Assembly (NCBI GenBank): GCA_964527525.1
Contig: CAZGPA010000008.1
Coordinates: 1,160 to 65,159 of the forward strand
DNA length: 64,000 bases
Direction: 5' to 3'
Source of the DNA: an uncultured Alistipes sp.
GTDB lineage: Bacteria; Bacteroidota; Bacteroidia; Bacteroidales; Rikenellaceae
Positions 53,784 to 56,481 of the stretch are shown piece after piece. The notes below the pieces were generated by a model, which did no database searches, was not told the origin of the DNA, and worked only from the letters and a program-made list of their open reading frames with translations. Each line of letters begins with the position of its first letter. Positions within the stretch are counted from its first letter, which is position 1. The translations under genes and the position numbers were made by a program.

Positions 53784-56162
53784 ATGAAAATCAGCAAATT
53801 TTGTATTATTATTTTGATGTTGCTCGTCGGACATTCGTTGCGAGCACAGGAGTTGCGTGGTACGATATGCGACACGAATAAACAACCGCTTATCGGAGCC
53901 TCGATCTATTGGGCAGGTACTACCGTCGGAGCCAGTAGCGATGCCGAAGGTACTTTCCGGATTCACCGTGTTAAGGGCTACGACCGCCTTGTTGCCTCTT
54001 ATTTGGGACACATCAACGATACGTTGCAGGTGGCGGCAGGTGTCGATCGAATCACATTCGCCCTTTCGCCACAAGGAGTTACCCTCGAAAATGTGGTGAT
54101 CGAAGGAGCGCAGAGTGGTAACTATGTCAAACGTGACGGCATTGTCAAAAACGAGATGATCTCTTTTGCCGGCCTTTGTAAGATGGCTTGTTGCAACCTT
54201 GCCGAATCGTTTGAAAATTCGGCTTCGGTAACCGTGGGGTACAGCGATGCCATCTCCGGAGCCCGTCAAATCAAGATGCTTGGCTTGGCCGGTACCTATA
54301 CCCAAATCCTCGACGAGAATCGTCCGATAATGCGTGGCCTCAGCTCCCCCTATGGTTTGAGCTATACCCCGGGCATGTGGCTCAACTCGATTCAAGTATC
54401 GAAAGGAATCTCTTCGGTAACGGCCGGTCACGAGGCAATCACCGGACAGATTAACCTCGAACACCGTAAGCCGACCGATGACGAGCGTCTCTTTGTCAAT
54501 CTTTACCTCGACGATGAGTTGCGTCCCGAGGCCAATATCTCGACGGCAATTCCGCTCACCAAAGACAAAAAGTTGAGTACGATTCTTATGTTGCATGGCT
54601 CGGTGGATACCGATGTGCGGAAAATGGATCATAACGACGACGGGTTCCGCGATCTGCCGAAAGCCGACCAAATCAATGTGGCTAACAAATGGCTCTATGC
54701 GGCTGATAATGGTACGCAAGTACGTTGGGGCTGGAAATTTGTGCAGGAGAACCGCTTGGGAGGCATGCTCGACTATGAAAATACAGCGGCTATGCGCAAT
54801 GCAATGGCGACAGATTGGGATTGGCAGACTGTGGCCGATAAAGAGATGCCGCTCTATGGCTCAAAGATCCGTAATCGCAATGCCAATGGTTATATTAAAA
54901 TAGGTATGCCGGTCGGACGATCGGTTTATGATGCGGAGCAGCAGGACGAGATGCGCTCGAACTTGGCCTTCGTGGTCGATTTCGACCATTTCAACGAAGA
55001 CGCCTATTTTGGTCTGAATGGTTATAGCGGCAATGAGAATACCTTGTCGGCCAATTTGATGTATGCTCACTATTTCACCTATCGTTCGTCGCTCAATATC
55101 GGTGTACAGGGACATTGGTCCAATTATCGCGAAACTCTCGACAACAAAACTCCGTGGATCGCAGCGTTGCCAGAGTGCCACTACGATTTCAATCGCGACG
55201 AGTCGGAGATCGGAGCTTATGCCGAATATACCTACGCCATAAAAGATAAATTCTCTATCGTAGCCGGTATTCGCGGTGATTATAACAACTATTACGACCG
55301 TTTCTTTGTAACCCCTCGCGGCCACTTGAAATGGAACATCACCCCTTCGACCACATTGCGCGCTTCGGCCGGTTTGGGTTATCGTTCGACAAATCTGATT
55401 ACCGATAATATCGGAGCATTGGCTACGGGTCGCACAATCCGTATTGCTCGATTTACCAACAATGGCCTGCAATATCTTTCGGATATCGATGGATTTGATC
55501 GCATGGAGAAGGCTTTGACGCTGGGAGGCAGCCTGACACAAACCTTCACATTGGTAAAAAAGGATGACGCAACGTTGAGTTTCGACTATTTCCGCACGCA
55601 GTTCTATAACTCGGTGGTTGCCGATCAAGAGTACGATGCCTCGTCGATACTCTTCTATAATACCGATGGCCGTTCCTATACCGACACCTATCAGATCGAC
55701 TTCTCATGGTCGCCGGTTGAGCGTCTCGATATCTTTGCAACTTTCCGTTACACCGATAGCGAGATGACCATTCATCGTCCCGATGGCAAAGTGGCACATG
55801 TCGAACGTCCGTTGGTAAGCCAATATAAGACGTTGCTGAACATTCAGTATGCCACAAAATTCCGTCGTTGGGTCTTCGATGCTACGGCTCAGCTCAACGG
55901 CCCTGCGCGTATCCCGACACAGACAGGCAATCTCGATAACGACTATTATTCACCTCGTTACCCGATGTTCTTTGCGCAGGTAACCCGCAAAATTGGCAAA
56001 TTCGATCTCTATGTCGGCTGTGAGAATATCGGTGATTACCGTCAACATGACCCGATTCTCGGGGTTGACAATCCGTATTCGACAACATTCAACTCGATGA
56101 ATGTTTGGGGACCTTTGATGGGCCGCAAGTTCTATATCGGATTACGTTTGAATATTTACTAA
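53784..56162 (+). CDS. TonB-dependent receptor with a carboxypeptidase-like N-terminal domain and Cys-containing plug
   Basis: Signal peptide, QPLIGASI, LCKMACCNLAESFE plug, IQVSKG..V..G.EAITGQIN, terminal YIGLRLNIY. Confidence 0.93.
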   Translation: MKISKFCIIILMLLVGHSLRAQELRGTICDTNKQPLIGASIYWAGTTVGASSDAEGTFRIHRVKGYDRLVASYLGHINDTLQVAAGVDRITFALSPQGVTLENVVIEGAQSGNYVKRDGIVKNEMISFAGLCKMACCNLAESFENSASVTVGYSDAISGARQIKMLGLAGTYTQILDENRPIMRGLSSPYGLSYTPGMWLNSIQVSKGISSVTAGHEAITGQINLEHRKPTDDERLFVNLYLDDELRPEANISTAIPLTKDKKLSTILMLHGSVDTDVRKMDHNDDGFRDLPKADQINVANKWLYAADNGTQVRWGWKFVQENRLGGMLDYENTAAMRNAMATDWDWQTVADKEMPLYGSKIRNRNANGYIKIGMPVGRSVYDAEQQDEMRSNLAFVVDFDHFNEDAYFGLNGYSGNENTLSANLMYAHYFTYRSSLNIGVQGHWSNYRETLDNKTPWIAALPECHYDFNRDESEIGAYAEYTYAIKDKFSIVAGIRGDYNNYYDRFFVTPRGHLKWNITPSTTLRASAGLGYRSTNLITDNIGALATGRTIRIARFTNNGLQYLSDIDGFDRMEKALTLGGSLTQTFTLVKKDDATLSFDYFRTQFYNSVVADQEYDASSILFYNTDGRSYTDTYQIDFSWSPVERLDIFATFRYTDSEMTIHRPDGKVAHVERPLVSQYKTLLNIQYATKFRRWVFDATAQLNGPARIPTQTGNLDNDYYSPRYPMFFAQVTRKIGKFDLYVGCENIGDYRQHDPILGVDNPYSTTFNSMNVWGPLMGRKFYIGLRLNIY

Positions 56163-56178
56163 CCAAAATTATAGTATC

Positions 56179-56481
56179 ATGAAAAAAATCGTAATGTTTT
56201 GTCTGGCTCTGATGTTGGGAGTCGGTGTGGCTTTGGCAGCCAAACCTGCACAAAAAAAGCAGATTGTAACAACCGTATTTGTTACCGATATCGATTGTGA
56301 ACATTGTGCCAAGAAGATCTTGAACAACGTTCCCTCGCTTGGTAAAGGTGTGCAGGATGTAAAGGTGGACGTCTCCAAGAAAGAGGTGACCGTAGTTTAT
56401 GACGCTTCGAAGAATAACGATGAAAATCTTGTGAAAGGTTTTGCCTCGATCAAGGTAAAAGCACAGCCGAAGAAGAAGTAA
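56179..56481 (+). CDS. Secreted heavy-metal-associated (HMA) domain protein, MerP/CopZ-like
   Basis: Signal peptide followed by IDCEHCAKKI, GVQDVKVD, VTVVYD. Confidence 0.92.
   Translation: MKKIVMFCLALMLGVGVALAAKPAQKKQIVTTVFVTDIDCEHCAKKILNNVPSLGKGVQDVKVDVSKKEVTVVYDASKNNDENLVKGFASIKVKAQPKKK

Follow-up and report, generated by a model that had tools for sequence, protein, structure and literature searches.

Which substrate would an outer-membrane receptor handle when two adjacent cysteines sit in its plug and the genes on either side of it also encode cysteine clusters? The question is raised by positions 53249-56481 of a 64,000-nucleotide (nt) stretch of DNA from an uncultured Alistipes sp. 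(Rikenellaceae), referred to below as the window, where three plus-strand open reading frames (ORFs; Table 1) encode, in order, a cysteine-rich leader, a TonB-dependent receptor (TBDR) and a secreted HMA-domain protein, with intergenic gaps of 67 nt between leader and TBDR and 16 nt between the TBDR stop and the HMA gene. On balance we favour the view that the locus encodes a soft-metal thiol relay of the outer membrane whose translation is gated by an arrest peptide. An earlier note on the same DNA had proposed a thiol-metal module from a CKMACCN motif in the receptor plug, a signal-peptide HMA protein with a CEHC site 16 nt past the receptor stop, cysteine clusters in all three genes and the lack of an adjacent inner-membrane ATPase or permease. 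Each of these features was found as described: gene 1 encodes 10 cysteines, and the ORFs that flank the trio encode RecQ, YidC and PyrG, none of them a permease or an ATPase.

The plug cysteine pair and its HMA partner

The second gene matched Pfam TonB_dep_Rec_b-barrel (PF00593) at 55 bits against a cut-off of 27 and encodes a CarboxypepD_reg-like N-terminal domain at ~residues 23-106 (51 bits in Pfam). The Pfam Plug score (PF07715) was 22.8 bits, slightly under the 23.9 cut-off, and an AlphaFold2 (AF2) model of the receptor (41 sequences; mean predicted local distance difference test (pLDDT) 85.8, predicted template modelling score (pTM) 0.80) has plug-like secondary structure over residues 113-227. 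A Foldseek search with this model returned FpvA, ZnuD, BtuB and OprC at E ~1e-28, that is, generic receptors only, at 11-15% identity, with metal-ion receptors ranked no higher than those for siderophores or B12. The SusC/RagA model (TIGR04056) scored 52.7 bits against a cut-off of 368.25, with residues 23-110 alone matching, and neither TIGR01778 nor any other specific NCBIfam model matched the TBDR.

A search of 1.84 billion protein representatives returned 860 TBDR relatives at E <=1e-30, and the query was aligned with 145 of the best 150 of these (sequences of at least 650 amino acids (aa) were kept) to give an alignment of 146 sequences at 33-79% identity. The earlier note had made its proposal depend on conservation of the plug cysteines, and this expectation held for part of the motif: C136 and C137 are present in 146/146 sequences and C132 in just 21/146, so the conserved element is the vicinal CC pair and not the whole CKMACC. 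Around the pair, S142, F143, D155, A156 and G159 are likewise invariant and form a family signature, and the pair itself recurred in all 20 further loci that we examined for CC, leader and HMA in a phylum-wide genome sample. In the AF2 model the pair lies within the loop 132-138, between plug helices 128-131 and 139-145, and in a sequence alignment with the closest solved chain, 9gbc_A, it comes directly before the canonical plug helix on the N-terminal side. It follows a Ton-box-like ENVVIEG (residues 102-108, recognized by eye in a low-pLDDT segment) by 28-29 residues. A mechanically weak sub-domain, which TonB pulls periplasm-ward, is made up in BtuB and FhuA of the 50-63 residues that follow the Ton box, and the first ~50 plug residues are extracted by TonB, perhaps, as the authors suggest, dragging ligand along (PMC5413942). 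By analogy, and from topology, we infer that the CC pair is carried on the TonB-pulled mobile segment; it probably belongs to the portion of the plug near the N-terminus that yields to force, rather than to an extracellular binding apex. A plug apex holds the invariant D155/A156/G159 (window 54240-54260), and a near-invariant DxNxDGFxD at residues 282-290 (window 54627-54653) is expected in the second extracellular loop; both are candidate extracellular metal or Ca sites.

The downstream partner matched Pfam HMA (PF00403) at 38.5 bits against a cut-off of 24.8 and retains the CxxC site, in which C43 is invariant among HMA relatives (alignment A4) and C40 is kept by at least 90% of them. It fell well short of the NCBIfam CopZ and MerP equivalogs (best CopZ 35 bits against 91; MerP 24.6 against 92.55). 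A gene-neighbourhood survey across Bacteroidota, which the earlier note had suggested as a check, drew on one genome per species and at least 596 confirmed TBDR relatives; 80 loci were examined, 76 with a complete receptor ORF, and 72 had enough flank for their partners to be evaluated. The survey came out in favour of the module, with an HMA gene downstream of the TBDR in 66/72 evaluable loci (ORF and Pfam gave 61, and tblastn another 5) and a Cys-rich leader upstream in 63/72. When 66 downstream ORFs were compared with Pfam, 65 matched HMA at E <=0.01, 63 of them over the cut-off. In 9 of the best 150 of the 860 TBDR relatives, hereafter the representatives, HMA is fused to the receptor, in proteins of 836-966 aa with one or two HMA domains ahead of the N-terminal domain (8/9 confirmed by Pfam); because the TBDR N-terminus is periplasmic, such fusions would hold HMA on the periplasmic side.

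In the 20 phylum-sample loci the position of HMA relative to the TBDR varied and the trio persisted: HMA was fused in seven, separate downstream in four and separate between leader and receptor in four. One further locus encodes a secreted YHS/TRASH protein instead of HMA (YHS 44.5 bits), and in the remaining four neither HMA nor a substitute was found within ~3 kb. Because the unit is conserved, the CC pair is invariant, fusions occur and YHS/TRASH can replace HMA, we favour a metal as the substrate and a functional tie of HMA to the receptor, and to this extent the proposal of a thiol-metal module stands, with the reservation that it missed the probable leader role of gene 1. That the three genes form one functional module is very probable, and it is fairly likely that the substrate is a soft metal ion. 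A complex prediction between TBDR residues 100-792 and mature HMA residues 22-100, both supplied as alignments, scored 0.01, which speaks neither for nor against binding.

Further variation was seen among the HMA partners. Many of them, free or fused, have a conserved C-terminal extension with a second vicinal CC, and some have long His-rich tails (A4, P0219, P0241, P0267, P0290, P0323); the window HMA has neither the extra CC nor the His-rich tail. Three loci (L060, L063, L076) encode a second small HMA protein of 71-89 aa, with no signal-like N-terminus, between the receptor and the secreted HMA. The YHS/TRASH protein (L098:5307-5738, minus strand) is encoded between leader and receptor, in the position of the missing HMA, and the receptor of that locus has a third cysteine six residues past the first Cys of the CC pair.

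The same data allow the pair to be read as a vicinal disulfide or a redox switch, with a structural or redox role, in a receptor whose substrate would be a metallophore, a thiol compound or something unrelated, with HMA and leader as mere sensors or accessories. Invariance alone is no proof of metal binding, the fold search did not set metal-ion receptors apart from siderophore or B12 receptors, DxNxDGFxD together with the apex residue D155 could form the real extracellular site, and a PqqD-like gene stands ahead of the leader in seven Rikenellaceae loci. We nevertheless consider a structural or redox role improbable: conserved thiol motifs occur in all three partners, including the second CC of many HMA tails, the accessory is always a heavy-metal-binding domain, whether HMA or YHS/TRASH, and in 9/150 representatives that domain is joined to the receptor itself.

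The probable leader gene and the predicted mRNA hairpin

The span 53784-56481 given in the earlier note omits gene 1 and a predicted regulatory hairpin, and it is gene 1 that suggests how the operon may be controlled. We detected 61 homologues of the leader, all from Alistipes-like sources. The leader diverges fast (~46% identity where the receptor keeps ~80%), yet the homologues keep the hydrophobic anchor, the cysteine after it, the Cys/His cluster with the CC motif and a C-terminal RAPP; C29, C31, C45, C79, C80 and P152 are invariant in alignment A1. RAPP was present in the window and in 20/20 Rikenellaceae-type loci (21/21); exactly three residues follow it in 20/21 (the window and 19 loci), and L012 has two. 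All four RAPP codons vary synonymously (alignment A3), which argues for selection on the RAPP peptide. RAPP is an established arrest motif (PMC10951233, PMC12992588, PMC9426467), and a catalogue has been drawn up of upstream ORFs (uORFs) with RAPP or RGPP that lie ahead of genes for TonB-dependent receptors in Gram-negative bacteria (PMC12992588).

Related leaders extend into distant Bacteroidota. A Cys-rich leader precedes the receptor in 19/20 phylum-sample loci, and 12 of 70 ORFs upstream of members of the TBDR family matched the NCBIfam model HYC_CC_PP (NF047658), four of them over the cut-off. In hhalign the Alistipes leaders aligned with 30 distant Bacteroidota upstream leaders at a probability of 95.2% (E 2.8e-8). 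Between CC and PP, intact Alistipes leaders have 69-73 residues and most distant leaders 50-61 (mostly 54-57, with four outliers at 72-90). By its sequence, gene 1 appears to be a diverged HYC_CC_PP-type leader: it has the same order of anchor, Cys, CC and PP, and differs in that its PP belongs to a RAPP three residues from the end, not 9-26. With a ribosome at RAPP, the ~71-residue spacing would place the CC motif outside the ribosomal tunnel, close to or inside the translocon. Judged from these motifs, an arrest-peptide leader with a regulatory role is the likeliest identity of gene 1, ahead of a mere third Cys cargo protein.

The codons that follow RAPP take part in a predicted mRNA hairpin (Table 1; minimum free energy (MFE) given there), whose 5' arm comprises the second Pro codon, the last three leader codons, the stop and a few bases more, and whose 3' arm spans -27 to -6 relative to the TBDR ATG. 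The window hairpin was more stable than expected on folding (z -2.69; 1/200 shuffles equally stable), and the same architecture was found in 15 of the 18 loci in which the leader directly precedes the receptor. Arm sequences differ among loci, yet they are complementary within each locus. In the MAFFT intergenic alignment A3 the 3' arms are out of register, and we therefore used duplex-energy permutation and shuffle tests. The 5' arm pairs with its own downstream region at -13.28 kcal/mol versus -9.24 kcal/mol with those of other loci, a value as low as which was reached in 0/20000 permutations. Summed over the 18 loci, duplex pairing was stronger than in dinucleotide shuffles (z -7.4), at a level that 0/300 shuffles reached, and 10/18 loci were individually strong by this measure. 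The hairpin arms thus co-vary, and taken with the leader motifs we consider it likely that the leader regulates the operon through RAPP arrest and the hairpin.

The closest precedents for such control are CruR-BfrG of Bordetella pertussis, with its DUF2946 leader, and CutF-CutO of Rhodobacter capsulatus. In CruR, RAPP stands three residues before the end and is required for expression of the downstream TonB-dependent transporter (TBDT), and copper acts through a CXXC at a fixed distance from RAPP (PMC9426467); the arrest has been shown in vitro (PMC12992588). The window leader has the general plan of a CruR-type leader, with RAPP at residues 149-152 of 155, a receptor 67 nt downstream and an N-terminal hydrophobic segment, the last recognized by eye. 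As in CruR-BfrG, an exported first gene with a Cys motif and RAPP three residues from the end opens a TBDT operon, the spacing from Cys motif to RAPP is fixed and the C-terminal tail is non-polar (PMC9426467). The differences are that DUF2946 matched neither the window leader nor any of 67 upstream ORFs scanned; that the motifs are CC, CxC and His here and CXXC in CruR; that CC lies ~71 residues before PP here, whereas the CruR CXXC lies 45 (+/-2) residues before RAPP; that the intergenic region is 67 nt with a hairpin at the start region here and 162 nt with Rho-dependent termination there; that the third gene encodes HMA here and a PepSY-type protein there; and that Bacteroidota are a phylum not listed in the CruR survey (PMC9426467).

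CutF and the CutF-like proteins share with the window leader a signal peptide, a metal motif, a C-terminal PP and a short intergenic region, and CutF stalling is proposed to open a stem-loop by which the ribosome-binding site and start of the next gene are masked (PMC9973294). By analogy, the hairpin here resembles the CutF stem-loop more closely than the Rho-dependent termination of CruR. CutF-like proteins have been counted with many members in Bacteroidota and with TonB-type neighbours (PMC9973294). At 155 aa the window leader exceeds the 150-aa filter in the definition of these proteins as given in that source, whereas its relatives of 134-148 aa pass it, and the other three defining features are all present. 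The downstream gene encodes a receptor here and a multicopper oxidase in the CutF system.

Gene 1 could instead act mainly as a mature membrane-anchored metallochaperone, forming the inner-membrane end of the relay, with RAPP and hairpin incidental or serving to fine-tune protein ratios. A length of 155 aa is large for a leader, the anchor and three Cys/His motifs are conserved, NCBIfam treats HYC_CC_PP as a protein family, and no other inner-membrane partner is conserved nearby. Such a principal role appears improbable to us, in that a fast-evolving leader still keeps RAPP with its three following residues, the CC spacing and the hairpin, a pattern of conservation that is also that of CruR, which its authors think short-lived (PMC9426467); the roles of chaperone and leader are, moreover, not mutually exclusive.

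Table 1. Features of the leader, TBDR and HMA locus, with positions in the window and residue numbers in the encoded proteins.
Feature	Window position	Strand	Residues	Remarks
Candidate Bacteroidota-type -7 promoter element	53173-53180	+		TAnnTTTG-like; 68 nt before leader start codon
Leader gene	53249-53716	+		155 aa, 10 Cys, 8 His
Leader hydrophobic anchor		+	~7-28	N-terminal; recognized by eye
Leader SLSCKC		+	26-31	Cys directly after anchor
Leader Cys/His cluster		+	43-51	alignment A1
Leader CC motif		+	79-80	alignment A1
RAPP codons	53693-53704	+	149-152	three codons more, then stop 53714-53716
Predicted mRNA hairpin	53701-53778	+		folding MFE -46.6 kcal/mol
TBDR	53784-56162	+		792 aa; signal peptide, N-terminal domain, Ton-box-like segment, plug, 22-strand barrel
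CKMACCN	54177-54197	+	132-138	TBDR plug
Vicinal pair C136-C137	54189-54194	+	136-137	invariant in TBDR alignment
Secreted HMA-domain protein	56179-56481	+		100 aa; signal-like N-terminal segment
CEHC	56296-56307	+	40-43	HMA protein

A scan for sigma-70 promoters gave nothing over shuffle expectation. Upstream of the leader lies a candidate promoter element whose TAnnTTTG pattern we take to be the Bacteroidota -7 consensus. We found no intrinsic terminator between the genes of the trio, and no Rfam RNA family or riboswitch at E up to 1 over positions 52900-56700.

Proposed mechanism and the metal

In the mechanism that we propose, the leader would be translated first and its N-terminal anchor would send the Cys/His-rich part toward or through the inner membrane. 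A ribosome stalled at RAPP would cover the last leader codons, which are the 5' arm of the hairpin, and the segment just before the receptor ATG would be freed as single strand, allowing translation of the TBDR and of the HMA gene 16 nt behind it. Bacteroidota are said to initiate translation largely without Shine-Dalgarno pairing. Metal bound to the nascent leader, whose CC motif is ~71 residues from RAPP, would alter the duration of arrest; in the CruR logic, metal would relieve the stall and switch the operon off, and we regard this sign of regulation as the likelier one because the locus appears to encode an uptake system. The TBDR would then take up the metal with the CC pair on the plug sub-domain that TonB unfolds, a position from which the pair could carry an ion inward, and the periplasmic HMA CxxC would accept the ion through ligand exchange. 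We rate import followed by transfer from CC to HMA as almost as probable as not. The most specific version of this mechanism, a TonB-powered "thiolate hook" in which the CC pair carries a soft metal through the barrel and passes it to free or tethered HMA while the operon is gated by metal-sensing RAPP arrest through hairpin melting, is conceivable and, taken as a whole, rather unlikely.

Several results weigh against this mechanism or parts of it. Metal binding by C136-C137 is putative, the geometry and exposure of the pair are read from topology, and the block 131-140 with the CC loop has a mean pLDDT of 73, lower than its surroundings. The window leader has no Pfam or NCBIfam match, HYC_CC_PP (at E up to 10) and DUF2946 included, and in distant leaders the PP is not RAPP and stands 9-26 residues from the end, which makes arrest there less certain. 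The arm pairing was not seen in 3/18 loci (L003, L016, L017), those with the longest spacers, and by the duplex-versus-shuffle comparison the hairpin of the window itself is not significant (76/300). No inner-membrane importer or transporter is conserved in the flanks of the surveyed loci, where recurring neighbours are housekeeping genes or restricted to a single lineage. With respect to copper supply, the source genome (G000; 1.99 Mb, 93% complete) shows no heme-copper oxidase, COX2 or multicopper oxidase, and its lone P-type ATPase is of the Ca type; the module occurs in 6/33 COX1-negative and 58/368 COX1-positive genomes; and the window HMA site, DCEHC, lacks the Met of MxCxxC, the usual pattern of copper chaperones.

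As to the identity of the metal, we slightly favour copper, with zinc as the alternative, and copper specifically should be taken as a tentative choice that is somewhat more doubtful than import itself. Leaning toward copper are the CopZ models, which were the best matches of the HMA protein although sub-threshold, the precedents CruR and CutF, both copper systems, the second small HMA protein of some loci and the single replacement of HMA by YHS. The DCEHC site, the His-rich motifs and tails and the occurrence of a Fur-family gene in some operons would all fit zinc, none of them decisively. Copper supply to heme-copper oxidases was considered as a general purpose of the module and is rejected, because the module is equally frequent in genomes with and without COX1.

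In G000 the window HMA is the sole HMA match, a single P-type ATPase of the PMCA Ca type was found and no heavy-metal P-type ATPase, and searches for Cu-oxidase_3 (multicopper oxidase), COX2 and COX1 gave no match in this 93%-complete genome. A need for copper import is not evident in G000, because heavy-metal ATPases and common copper enzymes were not found there, and this is one of the points that would fit detoxification, in which a CutF-like leader would respond to periplasmic metal with a prolonged stall that turns the operon on, and HMA would pass metal to the receptor CC for expulsion or sequestration. Detoxification would also fit the N-terminal, periplasm-proximal placement of the CC pair with HMA periplasmic or tethered there, the metal-enhanced stalling of CutF (PMC9973294) and the requirement for the TBDT Oar in protein export (PMC6434023), but we judge it very unlikely, since all characterized metal TBDTs import, with OprC and ZnuD among our fold matches, CruR-BfrG is copper-repressed (PMC9426467), outer-membrane efflux of small ions by a plug-type receptor is not known, and importers commonly have a Ton box and an N-terminal domain of this kind.

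Genomic setting and relation to known systems

The closest homologues carry Alistipes or Rikenellaceae names. At E <=1e-80 the TBDR was found once per genome in 64/401 sampled Bacteroidota genomes and in 40/180 genera, and was absent from all 87 sampled genomes of one family. In the window the trio is flanked by RecQ upstream (minus strand, divergent) and by YidC and PyrG downstream (minus strand, convergent). The neighbours at window 47182-53084 and 56578-62231 are housekeeping genes, named by eye from their translations as endonuclease IV, an rRNA methyltransferase-like protein, a 3'-5' exonuclease, RecQ, YidC, CTP synthase and a large DUF349-like coiled-coil protein; Pfam confirmation in related loci was limited to RecQ-, PUA- and exonuclease-type neighbours.

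Additional genes accompany the unit in some relatives. A PqqD-like gene (PF05402, 49.5 bits) lies on the same strand ~20 nt before the leader in L006, L013, L014 (3135-3509), L015, L018, L019 and L020; P0143 and P0144 were called as fusions of PqqD-like protein and leader, and the gene is absent from the window. In two Alistipes loci a His-rich Fur-family gene (Pfam FUR 30-34 bits; L004:3373-3885, L007:3335-3910) lies between the RAPP leader and the receptor and may hint at Zur- or Fur-type control. An ArsP_1 permease with a Cys/His-rich C-terminal tail (160.7 bits; L022:2194-3423) lies directly before the leader on the same strand, with a related ORF in L012, and is a possible inner-membrane partner in the L022 lineage.

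Among receptors, the copper transporter OprC and the zinc transporter ZnuD share the 22-strand fold and import a bare metal ion, but they are 12-13% identical to the window TBDR, and vicinal cysteines past the Ton box, or an HMA partner, are not known in either. The gene oprC is preceded by a cruR homologue (PMC9426467). The chemistry proposed here, in which a periplasmic HMA CxxC works with vicinal Cys pairs in its partners, has a likeness in the MerP-MerT-MerA relay for Hg(II). MerT carries a vicinal Cys pair and is an inner-membrane protein. A vicinal Cys pair is also found at the C-terminus of MerA (PMC3466566). The locus contains no mer genes, and the likeness is an analogy of chemistry and not of membership.

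Several elements of this account are already in print: published surveys cover both RAPP uORFs ahead of TBDR genes and the CutF-like proteins of Bacteroidota, and the small protein family has an NCBIfam model. In a literature search that mostly excluded subscription journals, nothing was found on the vicinal-Cys receptor family, on its HMA partner or fusion, or on the co-varying hairpin. The passage of bare metal ions through the outer membrane and their onward transfer in the periplasm have been worked out in very few systems, none of them in Bacteroidota, a phylum that includes dominant gut bacteria. The locus offers a defined three-part system with mutational targets in the Cys pair, the CxxC, the RAPP and the hairpin arms, and with natural fusions for structural work. 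It also poses a puzzle, in that Alistipes genomes retain the unit at ~80% identity and yet seemingly lack heavy-metal ATPases and the usual copper enzymes. If the proposed mechanism is true, it would extend the metal-sensing arrest peptides represented by CruR and CutF to the Bacteroidota and would provide a first candidate for an HMA chaperone that works in partnership with a TonB-dependent receptor.

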